42,197 bases of DNA. Source: Escherichia phage altidsur. Location of the stretch: the sequence record MN850568.1; one strand, written 5' to 3'. Position numbers and translations under genes: made by a program. The notes under the pieces were generated by a model that saw nothing but the letters and a program-made list of their open reading frames with translations, searched no databases and was not told the DNA's origin. Shown here one piece after another: positions 297 to 36,003 of this stretch. Within the stretch, counting starts at the first letter, position 1. Every line of letters begins with the position of its first letter.

Positions 297-3200
297 TTAT
301 CACACAAGAATCGCTCGACAAGTTCATGGCTCCCAAGCAGGGGGCCAACGCTCCCTCGCTGGTTATTCCAGCTCCCGTAAAGACTGCTGACCTCAGCACT
401 CCACTGCAAGATGCCACTCGTCAGGGTGCCGTCGAGCAGTTCGACAAGATGCAGGAACTGGAAGCAACTCCGATGGCCACGGCGTTGAGTGCTTCTGTGA
501 AGAACTGGGACACCACCCAGCTCTTTGATGCCGCGTTCAACAAGCCCACCTTCCAAGCTGACCCGGACTTCAAGCCCAACGAGGCATTGCAGAACGTACA
601 GTTCCCGGTGGGTGCAGATGACCGGACGTTCCTGTTCAAATCCAAATCCATGGACGAGTTCAACTGGCGTACCCAGCAGCTCCAAGAGATGCGTGAGCGT
701 ACCCAGTTGGCTCACACTGCCCCGGTGATGAACGCGGTTCTGCAATTCGCTGACCCGCTGTATCTCGCCACCGACCTGCTCTCGATGGGAGCAGGCACTG
801 CCCTGAAATTAGGTCGCCTCGGAACCGCCGCTGTCGGTGCAGCTTCAACTGCTGCCACTATGGCAGCGGTGGGTAACGAAGCACGCCCAGTGTCTCAGAA
901 CGAGATTATCTTCGCGGCTGCCCTGCACGGGGCAGCCACCACCGCGTTCTATCGTCCCGCCGCCGCGCCAGCTCGTCGCCTTGATGAACTGTCGCCGGAG
1001 GAGTTCGCTGCTGAGATGCAGCGCCGTAACGGTATCGACCCCAACAACCCGCCGCAGTTCGACCCGAACAATGCTATGTCGCCGCTGGCGATGTCGCTCG
1101 GTGTTGGCCCACGCGGTGCCGCTGTCGTTGACGAGGTTCCTGAATCCATCCGGGCTACGGCTCAGCGTGGACTCGACCTCGCACGCCGTGGCGAGCAGAC
1201 CAACCCTAAGCGTCCGTTCCTTGAGTGGTCACTGTTCAAGTCTTTCAGCCAGCACTCTGATGAATCAAGTGCTCTGGCCGGGCGACTGCTGGACGACCCA
1301 CTGAATCCGAACATGACCTCCGCTGCGTCTATCCAGCGCGAGACTCAGGCTCGCTTTGGTGTGCTGCTGAACCAGTATGAGGATACACTGCGCAACGCCC
1401 TGAACGCTGATGGCTGGAGCAACATCCGGCGCTTCCGCGACCCGGTAGGCTATCGCCGGGCGCAGCAGGAGTTTGAAGCTGCTGTGCGTCTGGAGCTGGA
1501 TAAGCGTATGATTGACCCCAGTTTCAAAGGCGCTAACCCAAATGTGGCCAACGCTGCCGACCGACTGGGGGAATACTCCCGTGCCGTTGGCCGTGAGCTG
1601 GAGAACAAGGGTATGGTTGAACCGGGCTTCGTTGAGAAGAACCCGTACTACTACCCGCGCCGGATGAACGTGACCAAGATTGAGCAGGCTGAGCAGTTGC
1701 TCGGCAAGAAACCATTCATGAAGCAGATGACGACTGCTGTGCAGCGCGGTATCGGTACTGACCGTCCGACTGCCAACGTCATTGCCCATGCTATGGTTGA
1801 GCGTGCTCGTCGTAAGGGTTACGGTATCGACAACTCCGGGATGATTATCAACAAGGAGGGTCGTGATGAACTACTCGAAATCATCGCGAACACGAAAGGT
1901 ATGGACGAGGCTGCCAAGGCCCGTGCGTCAGCGCTCCTTCGTGAGTCTGGCTCGGACGCTGGTAGACCGTCAATGCTTAAGAGCCGTATCAACATCGACA
2001 TGATGCACACGCTTGGCCCTAACTTGCAGGTGCGTGACCTGTTCGATGACAGCATCACCAGTATGATGGACAGCTACAACCGACGCATTACTGGGCGACT
2101 GGCTCTGCACGAGGCTGGATTGGGTACTGACGCTGAACGAGCTGCTGCTCGCGAGGCTCTGGCCAAATCTATCCCGGACAGCACTGCACGCCGCAAGGCT
2201 CTCGACCAGTACGACAACATCATGGCCTACTACCAAGGTGCTCCTGTTGGTGAGGAGATGCCGGAGTTCATGCGTCAGTTGTCGGCGCTGACTCAGGCCA
2301 CTGGTCTGGCTGCATCTGGTCTGTGGCAGTTGGTGGAATACGGCACGATGATGCAACGTTTCGGGGCAGTCAATACGTTTCGCGCCATGATGCGTACAAT
2401 TCCCGAAGCACGCGCACTATTTAAGCAAATGAGGGTGTCTACTAAGGAAGGTCGTCAGTTGGCACTTGATGCCGAGGAAGCTCTGACTGCGGCGGTTGCG
2501 AGTGATATTCGTATGCGCCCAATCATGCAGCACTATGACGACATGTTCTCTGCGGATAAGTCTCCGTGGGTCATGCGTATGGAACACCTGCGCGATGCCA
2601 CGATGTTCATCAACATGCAGAAGTACATCCACTTCCACCAGACTCGAACCAACGCTGCGCTCGTAATGCAGACGCTGCGCAAGGCAGCCGAAGGTGATGC
2701 CAAGGCTATTGCAGCCATGAAAACCTACGGTGCCAATGACGCGCTGCTGGCTGACATTCGCAAGCAGGTTGGTACTCATGGCACCAAGCCTGACGCTTGG
2801 GATGAAGGGGTGTTCAATCGCTCCCGCATTGTCATGATGAACGCCATGGATGACGCTATTGTTCGTGCTCGCGTAGGTGAGCTGCCTGCTTTCGCTGAGT
2901 TCAGTACCCTCGGCAAGTTCCTGTTTACGTTCCGTCGATTCGTCGCGGCTACGCACAACAAGACGCTGGTTGGTACTTGGAATCGCGAGGGTGCGCGTGG
3001 TATGGCTACGCTAATGGCGTACCAGTACCCGCTGGCGATGATGGCCACCGCTGCCAACAACGTCATCTCCGGCAAGGCATTCTCTGACCCGGACACTATG
3101 GCCCCGAACAAACTGGCAGGTCAGGCACTGAACTATCTTGGTGCTATCGGCTTTGCCTCTGAGTTCACTGGTGTACTGACCGGGCAGCAGCGTAGCTTCG

Positions 3201-32181: not shown

Positions 32182-33747
32182 ATGACTCAAGACGCGCAGA
32201 ACGTCAGCTATGAGTCTCTGTGGCAGAAGTACCGGGATAGCAACGTTGTCACCAAAGCGCGGGAGTACAGCCGCTATACACTGGCTAAGCTGGTGAGCGA
32301 GTACGACCGCAGTGACGTGGACGACATGAACCGCCAGCAGATTACTCGTGATTACCAGTCTGTCGGCGCTCTGCTCGTCAACAACCTAGTTGCCAAACTG
32401 GGTGAGTTCCTGTTCCCGGCTTCCGCTCGATTCGTGAAGCTGAAATTAAACAAGGTGTCTGACCAACAGCGGCAGTCTATGTCGCAAGTTAATCAGGCGC
32501 TTATCACTATTGAAAAGGCCATCGTAGACAAAGCCAAAGAGAATGGCGGCTACGCTGACCTGCTCCAAGCAATTGCCCAACAAGCTGTGACCGGAAACGC
32601 CGCGCTGTACCGCGATATGGAAACTGGTTCGTACCGAGTGTACGGATTGGAATCCTTCGTGGTGCAGCGCGACGGTCGTGGCGTTGTGGTGGATGCTATC
32701 GTGAAGGAGCGCATCCAGTGGGATTCTCTGCCCAAGGACTTTCAGAATGAACTGAACTCCAAAGGCTTCCGCTGCGGTGGGAACAAACGCGTATGGCTGT
32801 ACACTCGTGTGCTCCGCGTCCAGAAGGACAGCGGCACGTACGGCTACGAAATCACGCAGCAGATTGGTAACTACCAAGGTTGCGTCTATACCCCCGGTAA
32901 GGATTACTACCCTGAAAAAGTCTGCCCATGGTTATTCCCAGTGTGGTCTTTGAAGTCTGGCGAGCATTACGGTCGCGGGATTGTCGAAGACCACGCTGGG
33001 GATTTCGCACGTCTGTCCATGCTGTCTGAGCATTCGGCTCTGTACATGCAGGAAGCGCTGCGCGTGCTGTGGATGCTCACTGGTTCTGGCGGCAACGCCG
33101 ATGACATTGAGAGCGCAGAGACTGGTCAGGTCATTCCACTCCAGAACGGCACATCGCTGTCCGGCTTGGAGGTCGGGGATTACCAGAAAGTTCAACAGGC
33201 CCGTGACGAAATCAACCAGATTGTGCAGCGATTGGCGCAAGCCTTCATGTACACTGGCGAGTTCCGTGACTCCGAACGTACCACCGCCACCGAAGTGCAG
33301 CAGGTAGCAACCAGCGCCGAACGTGGGCTGGGTGGCCCGTACTCAATGCAGGCTAAGACCCTCCAGATTCCTCTGGCGTACGTCCTGCTCGCGGAGATTG
33401 ACGAGTCCACCGTACCTGACATCGTAGGCAATATCCTGTCGCTTCAAGTTGAAGCTGGTCTGGATGCCCTCGGTCGCAGCATTGAAGCAGAGACGCTGAT
33501 TCGTGCGCTCTCTGACTCGCAGGCAGCAATGGTTGCTGTCCAAAATATTAATGGCGTTGCTAACACCATCGACCCACAGAAAGTCCTTGAGGTTATCTTC
33601 GCATCCAACGGTGTTGCGCTTGACGACTATCGTAAGTCGGCACAAGACTTGGCCCAAGAAGGGCAGGCCATCGACAATGCAGCTCAGGCTGCCGCAGGCG
33701 TTCAGCCGGGCGCAGTCGATGTAGCGCCTAACATCGCACAGATTTAA
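32182..33747 (+). CDS. Portal (head-tail connector) protein, 521 aa
   Basis: Size and position (first large gene of the structural block, followed by scaffold and capsid) match T7 gp8-type portals. Confidence 0.8.
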   Translation: MTQDAQNVSYESLWQKYRDSNVVTKAREYSRYTLAKLVSEYDRSDVDDMNRQQITRDYQSVGALLVNNLVAKLGEFLFPASARFVKLKLNKVSDQQRQSMSQVNQALITIEKAIVDKAKENGGYADLLQAIAQQAVTGNAALYRDMETGSYRVYGLESFVVQRDGRGVVVDAIVKERIQWDSLPKDFQNELNSKGFRCGGNKRVWLYTRVLRVQKDSGTYGYEITQQIGNYQGCVYTPGKDYYPEKVCPWLFPVWSLKSGEHYGRGIVEDHAGDFARLSMLSEHSALYMQEALRVLWMLTGSGGNADDIESAETGQVIPLQNGTSLSGLEVGDYQKVQQARDEINQIVQRLAQAFMYTGEFRDSERTTATEVQQVATSAERGLGGPYSMQAKTLQIPLAYVLLAEIDESTVPDIVGNILSLQVEAGLDALGRSIEAETLIRALSDSQAAMVAVQNINGVANTIDPQKVLEVIFASNGVALDDYRKSAQDLAQEGQAIDNAAQAAAGVQPGAVDVAPNIAQI

Positions 33748-33757
33748 TGGAGAATAC

Positions 33758-34990
33758 ATGTTTGGTGAATCCCAACCTACTGCCGCACCCGCTCCCCAAA
33801 ACGTACCCGCTGGCCCGACCTATGCTCCCTCTGGTCACAGCGGTAATGATTATGGTGGAAGCCCACAGGTGGTACAGAACCCAGCGTTAGGCCGTCTCGG
33901 TACGCCAATCGAGTTACCTCGTGGTGGTGCTACCCCGCAGCCTGCGCAGCCGTTCGGACAGCAGCCGGGCCTGATTCCTTATCAGGAGCAGAATCCGTAT
34001 GCACAGCCCCAACAGGGAAACCCAAGTCCTTACGCACCCGTACCTCAGCAGAACCCGTATGGTGCTCCGCAGCAGACCTCTCCGTTTGCGGCACCACCAA
34101 TTCCGGTTAATGGGTATCAGAATCCGGGCGCAACGCCTCCGGGCCAAGCGGCTCCGGCACAACAGTTCCAACAGCCAGTAGCTCCGCAGCCTTACGCTTT
34201 CGACCCGTATGGTCGTCAGCCGGGCGCACAGCCGCAGGCACAGCAGCCTCAACAGCAGCAGCCGCAGCCATTCCAACAGTTGCAGCAGCAGCCGGGCCAG
34301 CCCCCGCAGCAGTTCCAGAATCCCAACCTCACGGCTGAGAAACTGGCTACTCAGGAAGGTGGCTTGACCTCCGAGCAGGTTGCTCAGATTTTCCCGGACG
34401 ATACCAGTCGCGCCGTATTCCAAGGTATGGACACCATTGCCCGTGGCCAGAACATCGACCTGCTTGCAGCGTTCGGTTCTGCTTACGAGCGTCGTGACCC
34501 GTCGCTGGTGAACGACCGCTATCTGGCTCAGTTCGACCCACAGACTGTATCAATCCTCAAAGGTCAATTCGGCGCACTGGTTGCGGCTGGTCAGCAGCGT
34601 GACGCTGCAATCGAGCAGCAGGTTTACCAGATGGCTGGTGGCGAGGAGCGATGGGGTCTGGCTGTACAGGCATTCAACACCGCCGCCGACAAAGGCACGG
34701 TCGATGCCGTTGTAGCGGCTGTGAACTCCGGCGACCCTAATCAGGTGCGTCTGGCAGTGAACACCATTCTCCAGTTCGCTGGTTCCGCAGGGAATATGAT
34801 TCAGCGTTCTGGTCAAACTTTGACGCCTAATGGTGGCGGTCAAGCACCTCGTGAGGTTATGACCAACGAGGCATTCCGTCAGCATCTTGGCTGGCTTGAG
34901 CAGGCGCATCCTGTTGGTTCCCCGGAATACAACAAGCATTACGCCGCACTGGTAGAGCAGCGCCGTCAGGCTAAAGCTCAAGGTTACTAA
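33758..34990 (+). CDS. Scaffolding protein with a long Pro/Gln-rich low-complexity N-terminal region, 410 aa
   Basis: Position between portal and major capsid; residues ~1-190 are dominated by P/Q/A/G repeats, the C-terminal half is ordinary. Confidence 0.6.
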   Translation: MFGESQPTAAPAPQNVPAGPTYAPSGHSGNDYGGSPQVVQNPALGRLGTPIELPRGGATPQPAQPFGQQPGLIPYQEQNPYAQPQQGNPSPYAPVPQQNPYGAPQQTSPFAAPPIPVNGYQNPGATPPGQAAPAQQFQQPVAPQPYAFDPYGRQPGAQPQAQQPQQQQPQPFQQLQQQPGQPPQQFQNPNLTAEKLATQEGGLTSEQVAQIFPDDTSRAVFQGMDTIARGQNIDLLAAFGSAYERRDPSLVNDRYLAQFDPQTVSILKGQFGALVAAGQQRDAAIEQQVYQMAGGEERWGLAVQAFNTAADKGTVDAVVAAVNSGDPNQVRLAVNTILQFAGSAGNMIQRSGQTLTPNGGGQAPREVMTNEAFRQHLGWLEQAHPVGSPEYNKHYAALVEQRRQAKAQGY

Positions 34991-35010: not shown

Positions 35011-36003
35011 ATGGCTGATAACGCTTATACCCCGAACCAGTTCCGTCCACACTGGGGTGGCGCGAACTCTGATAACGACATTCACCTTGAGGTGTATGAC
35101 CGTGATGTTCAAACCCAGTTCATCTACAACTCCATCTTCCGTTCCGGTCTGACCAACTTCAAGTCTGTGGCTAACCAGTCCAACACTTGGCGTGGCGACC
35201 GTCTCGGCTCTGTGACCGTTAAAGGTCGTCGCTCTGGTGAGGCGCTGGACAACCAGCCAGTTCGCTCTGAGAAACTGATTGTCACTGTGGATACCGTGTC
35301 TTACATCCGTATCCCGATTGACTATCAGGACGACTGGACTGCGCCGGACTTCCGCGCTGAGCTGACCCGTAACATGGGTACTGCACAGGCGAAGGCGTTC
35401 GACCAAGCGCACGTCATCCAGCTCCAGAAGTCTGCTGACTTCGTGCCTCCGGCTTCTCTGGCTGGCGCGTTCAACGCAGGTATCAAGGAGCAGGTCACTC
35501 TGACTGGCACCGTGGCATCTGAGGAAGATGATGCGTCTGCGCTGGTACACGGCCACAAGAAAGCTATCGAGGCGTTCATCCGTCGCGATGCCGACCTTGG
35601 CCGACTGGTTACGCTGATTGACCCGGCGTGGTTCAGCATTCTGCTGGAGCACAAGAAACTGATGAACGTTGAGTTCACTGGTGGTCGTGGTGTCAACGAC
35701 TTCGCAATGCGTCGTGTTGCGTACGTCAACGGTATCCGCATCATCGAGAGCAACGCGTTCCCGCAGGCGGCAATCACTGACCACATCCTCGGCCCTGACT
35801 TCAACGTCACCGCCGACGAGATTCAGCGCAAGATGATTATCTTCGACCCGTCTCTGGCTCTGGTCACTGTCGAAGCCCAGCCGCTGTTCAACCGCGTATG
35901 GGATGACGAACGTGAACTGACCAACGTTCTGGATAGCTTCCACATGTACACCGTGGGCCAGCGTCGTCCAGACGTGGTTGCTGTAGTTACCACTGAGACC
36001 TAA
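35011..36003 (+). CDS. Major capsid protein, 330 aa
   Basis: Strong RBS (AAGGATTTTCC-ATG); size and position match T7 gp10-type capsid; followed by a terminator hairpin. Confidence 0.85.
   Translation: MADNAYTPNQFRPHWGGANSDNDIHLEVYDRDVQTQFIYNSIFRSGLTNFKSVANQSNTWRGDRLGSVTVKGRRSGEALDNQPVRSEKLIVTVDTVSYIRIPIDYQDDWTAPDFRAELTRNMGTAQAKAFDQAHVIQLQKSADFVPPASLAGAFNAGIKEQVTLTGTVASEEDDASALVHGHKKAIEAFIRRDADLGRLVTLIDPAWFSILLEHKKLMNVEFTGGRGVNDFAMRRVAYVNGIRIIESNAFPQAAITDHILGPDFNVTADEIQRKMIIFDPSLALVTVEAQPLFNRVWDDERELTNVLDSFHMYTVGQRRPDVVAVVTTET

Follow-up and report, generated by a model that had tools for sequence, protein, structure and literature searches.

The head scaffolding protein of Escherichia phage altidsur (MN850568.1) begins with an uncharged, Pro/Gln-rich tail of about 190 residues, which is real, coding, conserved, predicted to be disordered, and organised in motifs. 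Judging from sequence comparison, this tail is an enlarged, clade-specific version of one found across phiKMV-type scaffolds. As to its role, we give an even chance to multivalent weak binding in procapsid assembly via aromatic "stickers." The window analysed is the whole stretch of 42,197 nucleotides, and the features in and around the scaffold gene are collected in Table 1.

Altidsur is a Bonnellvirus with 99% identity to phage aldrigsur. Genes for the portal, the scaffold, and the major capsid protein follow each other in this order on one strand, and the scaffold gene is a single unbroken frame of 410 codons plus stop, whose annotated start has a Shine-Dalgarno (SD) score of 4. The product matches PHROG 36307 over its full length (E 1.5e-214) and PHROG 1018 over residues 148–410 (E 4e-14), and its structural matches in BFVD by Foldseek are Autographiviridae scaffolds only (LIMEzero, 8e-29; RSB3, 1e-8). 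Given its neighbours, portal on one side and capsid on the other, and its two PHROG matches, the gene product is assigned by homology to the phiKMV-type head scaffolding proteins, and the first-pass annotation was right to see it in the scaffold position. A profile of 14 homologues retrieved nothing from the PDB at E ≤ 1, and the best Foldseek match in the PDB was no lower than E 0.65. No promoter or terminator was found within the scaffold gene. An open reading frame on the minus strand (33914..34423) was rejected as an antisense shadow of the CAG/CCG-rich coding sequence; the genome is transcribed from one strand.

Table 1. Features of the portal–scaffold–capsid region of phage altidsur (nucleotide positions in the window; aa, residues of the scaffolding protein).
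Feature	Position	Strand	Basis or remark
Portal (head-tail connector) gene	32182..33747	+	Pfam PF12236, E 3e-49; PHROG 449; annotated as portal protein in aldrigsur
Portal stop codon TAA	33745-33747	+	Directly 5′ of the scaffold gene
Shine-Dalgarno sequence GGAG	33749..33752	+	5 nt ahead of the scaffold ATG; same spacing in 14/14 Bonnellvirus genomes
Scaffolding protein gene	33758..34990	+	PHROG 36307 and PHROG 1018; position between portal and capsid genes
Disordered (predicted), uncharged P/Q-rich tail, aa 1-191	33758..34330	+	Composition; AF2 pLDDT <50, no secondary structure; dN/dS 0.22-0.35; net charge -2
Motif A, PQNVPAGP, aa 13-20	33794..33817	+	Resembles the family-wide N-terminal QNVPPG[LI]P / GFxVPP
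Motif B, VVQNPALGRLGTPIELP, aa 38-54	33869..33919	+	Best-conserved tail element
Clade-specific aromatic motif array, aa 64-151	33947..34210	+	QPF, NPY, SPY, NPY, SPFAAPP, NGY, PPGQAAP, QPYAFDPY
Poly-Q/P segment, aa 152-190	34211..34327	+	Length-variable part of the tail
Conserved scaffold domain, aa 191-410	34328..34987	+	All-helical from aa 205 (predicted)
Basic C-terminal helix, ..EYNKHYAALVEQRRQAKAQ.., aa 389-407	34922..34978	+	Nearly invariant family-wide; AF2 helix, pLDDT ~80
Major capsid protein gene	35011..36003	+	PHROG 267, E 1.4e-79; HK97-like fold (AF2 pLDDT 85-95)

The C-terminal part of the protein is the part shared most widely. AF2 predicts 11 helices in residues 205–407 (pLDDT 70–85), and this domain is matched by 170 representatives at E ≤ 1e-3. 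In tblastn it is 25–30% identical to phiKMV gp31 and KP34 gp41 (PHROG 1018), which occupy the same gene position and have a homologous C-terminal helical domain. The basic helix near its end is a candidate coat-binding element. Furthermore, the scaffold domain is probably a remote homologue of T7 gp9, a protein with the same role and gene order, and a long low-complexity region precedes the conserved domain in both. Residues 219–402 of altidsur align colinearly with residues 125–301 of gp9 in hhalign (168 columns, E 1.3e-4, probability 53%), and pairwise BLASTP gives E 0.013. Against Pfam PF05396, T7 gp9 scores 255 bits while the altidsur scaffold stays under the threshold, with no match of the whole protein at E ≤ 0.1 and none of the C-terminal domain at E ≤ 1. 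The claim that the protein is about 100 residues longer than gp9 holds (410 vs. 307 residues); in the profile alignment, 218 residues precede the shared domain in altidsur and 122–124 in T7.

The tail belongs to the same reading frame. The scaffold ORF is intact in all of the 14 Bonnellvirus genomes, with 406–411 residues and a GGAG sequence in every case, and the –1 and +1 frames contain many stops. In the annotated frame, dN/dS is well under 1 for every sub-segment of the tail, with many synonymous changes; the values are 0.22–0.35 in residues 1–190 against 0.08–0.10 in the C-terminal half, and because this purifying selection is two to three times weaker than on the C-terminal domain, some of the tail may be under loose constraint only. 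The pattern across genomes indicates that the tail is translated and selected together with the helical scaffold domain. Nested scaffold genes are known from lambda and P2, and it could be imagined that the tail of altidsur is likewise a separate product, or that the functional scaffold starts internally; this is extremely improbable. In the record of Cronobacter phage RZ4, only a 277-aa CDS is annotated, from an internal ATG, but this Met is present in just three of the 14 genomes and has no SD sequence. An SD sequence at TTG codon 203 occurs in only two of the 14, and an in-frame internal start with a conserved SD sequence was not found in any position, nor was a conserved frameshift. A heptamer, GGGAAAC, is present at codon 86, but it is a consequence of conserved Q-G-N codons and is absent in Lidtsur, and purifying selection acts on the annotated frame from codon 1, the alternative frames being rich in stops. 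Internal start, frameshift, and nested gene were rejected on the stops, the unconserved starts, and the loss of the heptamer. The first-pass annotation had itself named absence of the region from functional relatives, and a separate gene reached through a missed frameshift, as grounds for abandoning its view; relatives down to 49% identity all keep the tail, and one intact frame without a conserved internal start runs through the 14 genomes.

In the altidsur proteome, the scaffold tail is the extreme for P/Q richness and low charge. Residues 1–191, which coincide exactly with the ~190-residue P/Q-rich N-terminus originally noticed (nucleotides 33758–34330), consist of 23.0% proline, 22.5% glutamine, 11.0% alanine, and 10.5% glycine, so that P and Q together make up 45%. 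The highest P+Q fraction in a 100-residue window is 0.56 in the tail vs. 0.20 in the next-best of the 42 plus-strand ORFs, and 87 P or Q among 191 residues has a binomial tail of 5e-42 at the proteome frequency of 0.085. Charged residues number eight in residues 1–191 vs. 41 in residues 192–410 (binomial tail for eight or fewer, 3e-12). The disorder that the first-pass annotation suspected is also what AF2 predicts, with pLDDT <50 across nearly all of residues 1–201, and another, independent run agrees; when the whole protein is modelled, the tail shows no docking onto its own helical domain. Of the "degenerate P/Q/A/G repeats" described at the outset, the bias in composition stands and the repeats do not. 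At the DNA level, Tandem Repeats Finder reports one weak array (2.3 copies of 15 nt) and no true repeat, and self-alignment of the protein is no better than that of shuffled sequences (P = 0.21). Aromatic residues recur at a spacing of nine more often than expected (4 vs. 1.0; P = 0.008, uncorrected), a signal that is lost after correction for 24 lags.

A composition of this kind recalls prion-like domains, and the orthologue in phage J8-65 was listed as prion-like, with an LLR of 32.4, in a PLAAC survey (Tetz and Tetz, 2017; PMC5694896 supplement). Glutamine and asparagine account for about 28% of the altidsur tail. Nevertheless, a switch of the tail to a self-propagating, beta-rich aggregate is very improbable. 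Frequent proline strongly disfavours cross-beta stacking in amyloid cores, and proline (23%) is spread throughout this tail, the longest proline-free stretch being 11 residues (SGHSGNDYGGS) and the rest seven at most. AF2 predicts no beta structure, and an irreversible aggregate would block the exit of the scaffold.

Within the tail, conservation is unevenly distributed over several elements. Motif A was likened to the N-terminal family motif by eye, and the likeness has moderate statistical support: among 144 family representatives, 43 have a similar pattern at about position 10, vs. 16 expected in shuffles. In motif B, V39, N41, P42, A43, L44, G45, and P54 are invariant among 14 diverse homologues, and 19 of the 144 representatives contain the pattern [NSD]P[AM]L[GS], vs. 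0.2 expected; motif B is also the sole tail segment in which AF2 places a short helix (residues 42–47). In the aromatic array, positions 81, 92, 101, 110, 120, 146, 148, and 151 are aromatic in 86–100% of the 14 homologues. These eight positions, mostly within [NSQ]P[YF], recur at intervals of 9–11 residues against a background of P, Q, A, and G, in a clade-specific insert of ~90 residues. The gaps between aromatic residues are more regular in altidsur than in shuffles (variance 25 vs. 76, P = 0.011); the variance is below the shuffled one in 12 of the 14 homologues and reaches P < 0.05 in only eight, and these related sequences are not independent tests. Conservation and even spacing of the aromatic residues are therefore best called suggestive. 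N79, P80, Y81, P91, Q97, P100, P109, and P114 do not vary even among homologues as distant as 49% overall identity, which points to a conservation of the tail that is sequence-specific and goes beyond mere composition. The array belongs to this clade: [NSQ]P[YF] motifs number seven in altidsur and two to six in the seven representatives of the clade (five or six in the six full-length ones), with a mean of 0.06 in the 137 other family representatives, and aromatics per 100 tail residues are 8–9 vs. 1.9 (median) for the remaining family members. Of the 14 gap columns in the alignment of Bonnellvirus sequences, 12 fall in the poly-Q/P segment behind the array (P+Q up to 0.77 per 30 residues), in which only 16 of 45 columns are invariant.

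Comparison within the family suggests where the enlarged tail came from. In the 144 representatives, the median length of the N-terminal extension is 75 residues, and its fractions are 0.30 P+Q, 0.06 D+E, and 0.03 K+R, so on sequence grounds P/Q-rich, uncharged tails are the norm among phiKMV-type scaffolds. For example, phiKMV gp31 has its own uncharged, P/Q/A-rich N-terminus of ~120 residues, in which "LPPGLANLVANIPP" resembles motif B of altidsur, while in the scaffolds of KP34, PPWS2, and Proteus 309 the tail, unlike that of altidsur, is short and charged. The view of the altidsur N-terminus as something unusual has thus to be narrowed: its length, ~2.5 times the family median, and its aromatic motifs, of which the others have essentially none, are peculiar, but a disordered N-terminus itself is common in the family. 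The distance from motif B to the helical domain is 19–37 residues in 13 ordinary members vs. 109–154 in this clade, which has inserted ~120 residues between the family-wide motif NPALG..P and the domain. When residues 1–158 were searched by tblastn against all phage records, the matches were 19 Bonnellvirus records only, and a scan of IMG/VR gave eight loci only, all in the same clade. In word-indexed protein searches, the full-length query, saturated by low-complexity words, gave 18 matches and the C-terminal domain gave five. Capture from a P/Q-rich host gene (zipA or ftsK, for instance) finds no support, as no DNA similarity to the tail was found by blastn in 5,426 E. coli genomes.

Could the insertion be a slippage by-product, tolerated by the phage without a function of its own? 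Indels at the poly-Q/P end distinguish close relatives, a DNA repeat is annotated there in two records, selection is weaker than on the C-terminal domain, and family members with tails of 26–60 residues exist and are evidently functional. Yet such a neutral expansion is quite unlikely. The tail is kept at 155–190 residues throughout a clade whose C-terminal domains have diverged to 50% identity, with dN/dS well below 1 in all of its sub-segments and conserved aromatic positions; altidsur has essentially no DNA tandem repeat, and the mixed usage of P and Q codons argues against slippage.

A more serious alternative, possible though on balance doubtful, treats the tail as a flexible tether with a passive role. 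In E. coli ZipA, the P/Q domain is unstructured and regarded as a flexible tether; like the altidsur tail, it is a Pro/Gln-rich segment with a binding element on one side and a folded domain on the other. By analogy, the sole task of the P/Q stretch would be to determine how far motifs A and B extend from the scaffold layer, e.g., in the direction of the portal or the core in the procapsid center, and length and composition alone would matter. The predicted disorder is consistent with this, as are the family-wide occurrence of motif B, the fact that the changed part is the spacer behind it, and the tolerance of residues 152–190 for indels and substitutions. A pure tether, however, would conserve composition only, and residues 64–151 argue against it because NPY, SP[FY]AAPP, PPGQAAP, and Y.F.PY are invariant or nearly so while the C-terminal domains are at about 50–70% identity; ZipA differs from altidsur in just these conserved aromatic motifs. 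Conservation of length and composition without sequence is a description that fails for residues 64–151 and holds only for residues 152–190. Moreover, a geometric need for longer reach is not evident, because relatives with short spacers do not differ in genome size or in the length of their capsid protein.

The reading in which the tail binds weakly and multivalently through its aromatic residues accommodates these motifs. Sticker-and-spacer domains are known from FUS/hnRNPA1-type prion-like domains and the E. coli SSB linker, and carboxysome CsoS2 and adenovirus 52K are disordered, multivalent scaffolds of shells. With the former, the altidsur tail shares disorder (predicted by AF2), low charge (net –2 over 191 residues), evenly spaced aromatics (eight columns conserved at 86–100%), and a polar spacer, which is unusually proline-rich (23%) in altidsur; with the latter, it shares a disordered region on an assembly factor of an icosahedral shell. 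The multivalent binding that the first-pass annotation put forward is thus in keeping with the conserved, evenly spaced motifs, but a fusion modelled by AF2 lends it nothing: residues 1–133, connected with the capsid protein through a Gly/Ser linker of 40 residues (85-row alignment), had pLDDT 27–43 and showed no docking, which is weak evidence since the model contained a capsid monomer only. No report of phase separation or multivalent binding by any phage scaffold was found in the literature searched, and papers on Bonnellvirus do not mention the scaffold tail.

What the tail binds, and to what effect, we only infer, as follows. The helical domain with its basic C-terminal helix would build a scaffold layer beneath the shell, an arrangement known from other tailed phages, and the tail would point into the lumen of the procapsid. 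There, numerous weak interactions would link the aromatic stickers to the tails of other scaffold molecules and perhaps also to core proteins or the inside of the shell; such contacts would raise the local concentration of scaffold and thereby promote nucleation and stabilisation of the procapsid. On DNA entry, the tail could leave intact because it is flexible and uncharged. The 99%-identical genome has no annotated protease gene. Release would differ from that in P22 and T7. In P22, the scaffold layer is made of helical domains of gp8 (PMC12005531), and the mobile segment is ~40 residues long, disordered, and negative, while the altidsur tail has ~190 uncharged residues; sequence homology between the two scaffolds was not detected. 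The charge of the P22 tail has been proposed to drive scaffold release during DNA packaging, and since the altidsur tail is uncharged, such a mechanism is inapplicable to it: repulsion by DNA could not act on the tail. The tail of T7 gp9 is also acidic (27–33% D+E, net –34) and almost without P and Q.

A stronger form of the proposal is that the tail makes the scaffold a condensate former, in which demixing or a condensate-like density would give a liquid-like core, to which capsid protein is recruited and from which procapsids nucleate. We consider this unlikely. The density in question would be roughly 100 mg/ml if a T7-sized procapsid holds ~140 copies, as estimated from T7 copy numbers. 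If true, it would be the first capsid assembly driven by phase separation in a bacteriophage, and it would offer a neutral-tail alternative to the model of release by charge repulsion.

Scaffolding proteins are the least understood part of head assembly in tailed phages, and cryo-EM cannot see the regions of them that are disordered. In the current view, derived from P22 and extended to T7, a disordered acidic N-terminus helps the DNA to expel the scaffold. The phiKMV-type branch of the T7 supergroup carries uncharged, P/Q-rich tails instead of acidic ones, and in one clade this tail has grown into a conserved aromatic array. Should multivalent contacts be what the array mediates, altidsur would provide a tractable system in E. 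coli K-12 for the part that disorder plays in capsid nucleation and scaffold exit. Or, if the tail is dispensable, it may serve as a permissive site for fusing cargo in nanocontainers derived from the phage.

The gene, for which GenBank already gives a scaffolding protein, shares 99% identity with its aldrigsur counterpart and 77–95% with the scaffold genes of further Bonnellvirus phages (Autographiviridae). Genes in the window are unidirectional, and the RNA polymerase gene lies directly upstream of the structural genes, a phiKMV-like order. A match to PHROG 36307 spans the whole protein, and one to the general scaffold family PHROG 1018 is limited to residues 148–410. The C-terminal domain shares 25–30% identity with phiKMV gp31, with KP34 gp41 and with some 380 further phage scaffolds; the J8-65 record remarks that likeness to LIMEzero gp39 is restricted to the “C-terminal half.” The family profile aligns colinearly with T7 gp9 residues 125–301, the segment defined by Pfam PF05396 as the T7 capsid assembly domain (E 1.3e-4, probability 53%), and the window scaffold itself falls below threshold against PF05396. 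Because of these PHROG, identity, profile and Pfam results, sequence comparison places the protein among the phiKMV-type scaffolds, with a probable remote relationship to T7 gp9.

Coordinates of the scaffold gene, its neighbors and the features discussed in the text
Feature	Record	Position	Strand	Remarks
Portal gene	window	ends 10 nt before scaffold ORF	+	Pfam PF12236, E 3e-49
Scaffold ORF	window	33758..34990	+	410 residues
N-terminal tail	window	33758-34330	+	aa 1-191
Slippery heptamer GGGAAAC	window	34015-34021		codon 86, -1 type
Two-allele segment	window	34160-34210		aa ~135-151
Rejected ORF	window	33914-34423	-	169 codons, Leu/Arg-rich
Major capsid gene	window	35011-36003, starts 20 nt after scaffold ORF	+	PHROG 267
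Scaffold frame, Cronobacter phage RZ4	LC778449	301-1536		411 codons + GGAG ribosome site, intact
Scaffold homologue, then major capsid protein, Pseudomonas phage HHBS14_1	PQ287643	~1318-3130	+	

The first-pass annotation described a scaffold about 100 residues longer than T7 gp9 with a first half of degenerate P/Q/A/G repeats. The length holds (410 vs. 307 residues), and the dominance of these residues was placed exactly: Pro accounts for 23.0% of the tail, Gln for 22.5%, Ala for 11% and Gly for 10.5%, and the tail has only 8 charged residues compared with 41 in the C-terminal 219. Among the 42 ORFs of the phage, the maximum P+Q fraction per 100-residue window is 0.56 in the scaffold and 0.20 in the runner-up; the P/Q excess has a binomial probability of 5e-42, and the shortage of charged residues one of 3e-12. 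The feature is thus real and non-random. The word “repeats” is poorly supported: Tandem Repeats Finder detected a single weak 2.3-copy array in the DNA, and protein self-alignment of the tail did not exceed that of shuffled sequence (P = 0.21). Since Pro and Gln codons are mixed and a DNA tandem repeat is lacking, the bias is maintained at the protein level. Capture from a P/Q-rich host gene is unsupported, as a search of 5,426 E. coli genomes with the tail DNA gave no hits; by tblastn, the tail module was found in Bonnellvirus scaffolds only.

The suggested disorder is borne out by modeling. AlphaFold2, run with an 18-sequence alignment, predicts residues 1–201 with pLDDT below 50 and without secondary structure over nearly all of their length, except for a short helix at 42–47, and residues 205–407 as eleven helices (pLDDT 70–85). 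Foldseek found no match in the PDB and, in a viral predicted-structure library, only Autographiviridae scaffolding proteins. The literature searched does not discuss the anatomy or function of the tail. A catalogue of prion-like domains in phage proteins (Tetz and Tetz, 2017 supplement, PMC5694896) includes the J8-65 scaffold, with a PLAAC LLR of 32.4, and several scaffolds of Acinetobacter podophages. That the tail is an amyloid prion is nevertheless very improbable, being contradicted by its proline content: proline occurs throughout, and apart from a single 11-residue stretch, no run free of it exceeds 7 residues.

A separate or nested gene, or a missed frameshift, is hardly credible as the source of this region. 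All 14 Bonnellvirus genomes carry one unbroken frame of 406–411 codons with GGAG 5 nt upstream of ATG; no internal start in this frame is both conserved among them and preceded by a ribosome-binding site, and alternative frames are packed with stops. By the Nei-Gojobori method, dN/dS is 0.22–0.35 for codons 1–190 and 0.08–0.10 for codons 191–410, with plentiful synonymous changes in both. On these substitution patterns, purifying selection acts on the tail in the frame as annotated, though 2–3 times more relaxed than on the C-terminal half; nearly all indels are found in codons ~155–190. Programmed frameshifting at the sole slippery heptamer was rejected: the heptamer, which 13 of the 14 genomes have in the form GGGAAAC or GGGAAAT and Lidtsur has lost, is a product of conserved Gln-Gly-Asn codons, and the −1 frame meets a stop after ~30 codons. 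The minus-strand ORF was also rejected, as a mirror of CAG/CCG-rich coding in a genome transcribed from one strand.

Some records differ from this gene structure. The RZ4 record begins a 277-aa “hypothetical protein” at an internal ATG and leaves the first 134 codons unannotated; this start, a Met in only 3 of the 14 genomes, lacks an SD, and the short CDS is therefore a gene-calling artefact. In HHBS14_1, scaffold and capsid ORFs sit between a head-tail adaptor and a tail protein, and the record covers both with one hypothetical protein of 1632 nt on the minus strand, probably a mis-annotation. Two partial hypothetical proteins labeled Cutibacterium acnes at NCBI (P0019 and P0188), on contigs of ~1 kb, are 75% and 88% identical to the scaffold C-domain and capsid protein of the altidsur phage, most likely through enterobacterial podophage contamination of the assembly.

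An exhaustive search of 1.84 billion representatives yielded 170 relatives, 144 of them usable for N-terminal measurements. The residues preceding the conserved domain number 75 at the median (IQR 59–87), with median fractions of 0.30 P+Q, 0.06 D+E and 0.03 K+R; because of these medians, an uncharged P/Q-rich N-terminus is the norm in phiKMV-type scaffolds, phiKMV gp31 having one of ~120 residues. The first reading was broadly right but overstated how exceptional the tail is. T7 gp9 also has ~122 residues before its conserved domain, but these are 27–33% Asp+Glu, with a net charge of −34 vs. −2 for the altidsur tail. The longest tails, of 155–190 residues, belong to the clade of the window, made up of Bonnellvirus, LIMEzero and a few metagenomic relatives; the next longest has 131. 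Outside the clade, identity is 55–65% for the capsid protein, with hundreds of metagenomic proteins, vs. 25–41% for the scaffold C-domain; therefore, the scaffold evolves far faster than the shell.

The tail is a clade-specific, aromatic-motif-bearing expansion of this common form. Motif A (PQNVPAGP) resembles “QNVPPG[LI]P”/“GFxVPP,” which 43 of 144 representatives carry near position 10 (16 expected), and 19 of 144 have the motif B pattern [NSD]P[AM]L[GS] (0.2 expected by shuffling). Motif B lies 19–37 residues from the helical domain in 13 ordinary members vs. 109–154 in the clade, which therefore gained a spacer insert of ~120 residues. In 14 homologues with overall identity down to 49%, V39, N41-P42-A43-L44-G45, P54, N79-P80-Y81, P91, Q97, P100, P109 and P114 are invariant, and positions 81, 92, 101, 110, 120, 146, 148 and 151 are aromatic in 86–100%. 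Aromatics number 8–9 per 100 residues in the clade vs. a median of 1.9 in the other 137 representatives; [NSQ]P[YF] motifs number 7 in the window and 2–6 in clade representatives (5–6 in the six that are full-length), with a mean of 0.06 in the other 137. The aromatics are spaced more evenly than by chance in the window (gap variance 25 vs. 76 shuffled, P = 0.011), a 9-residue spacing standing out (P = 0.008, uncorrected); the variance is below shuffled in 12 of 14 sequences, with P < 0.05 in 8 of these 14 related sequences. Neutral expansion is quite unlikely, contradicted as it is by dN/dS, length conservation and the conserved aromatic positions.

The scaffold gene is mosaic across the window and its 13 relatives. 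Its two-allele segment occurs as QQFQQPVAPQPYAFDPYG or QQPGLAPNNPAYGFNPYG, and which allele is present is unrelated to how similar the C-halves are. In synonymous divergence, the N- and C-halves are discordant between pairs (forsur/J8-65, 0.36 vs. 0.94; window/forsur, 0.54 vs. 0.28), a sign of recombination within the gene. Among distant scaffold lineages, two have aromatic-rich tails of their own: that of P0163 is FUS-like and rich in Gly/Tyr/Gln (9.8 aromatics per 100 residues), and that of P0023 is shorter and combines Trp/Tyr/Phe with P/Q. Sticker-rich tails may have several separate origins in the scaffold family.

This bona fide scaffold thus bears an obligatory, uncharged, motif-bearing N-terminal half that is predicted to be disordered. 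In P22, the scaffold binds coat protein by its C-terminus, its N-terminus is mobile in the procapsid, and charge-repulsion release has been proposed for the acidic N-terminus. By analogy, the altidsur tail should project into the procapsid lumen; being neutral, it cannot be subject to release of that type. No prohead protease is annotated in the 99%-identical aldrigsur genome, so the scaffold presumably exits intact. A pure tether, the tail serving only as a flexible spacer, would account for the longer spacer and for the variability of residues 152–190, but is rather doubtful, as it leaves the conserved motifs of residues 64–151 unexplained. Because specific, regularly spaced aromatic-proline motifs are conserved, weak multivalent contacts are preferred over a passive spacer; candidate partners would be other tails, the shell interior, or the portal and core. 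In an AlphaFold2 fusion of residues 1–133, a 40-residue linker and the capsid protein, pLDDT was 85–95 in the well-folded capsid protein and 27–43 in the tail; as evidence on contact with the capsid this is negative, though weak, the model being of a monomer and without a contact read-out. An unlikely reading, though the main attraction of this tail, would be that it drives condensate-like scaffold assembly.
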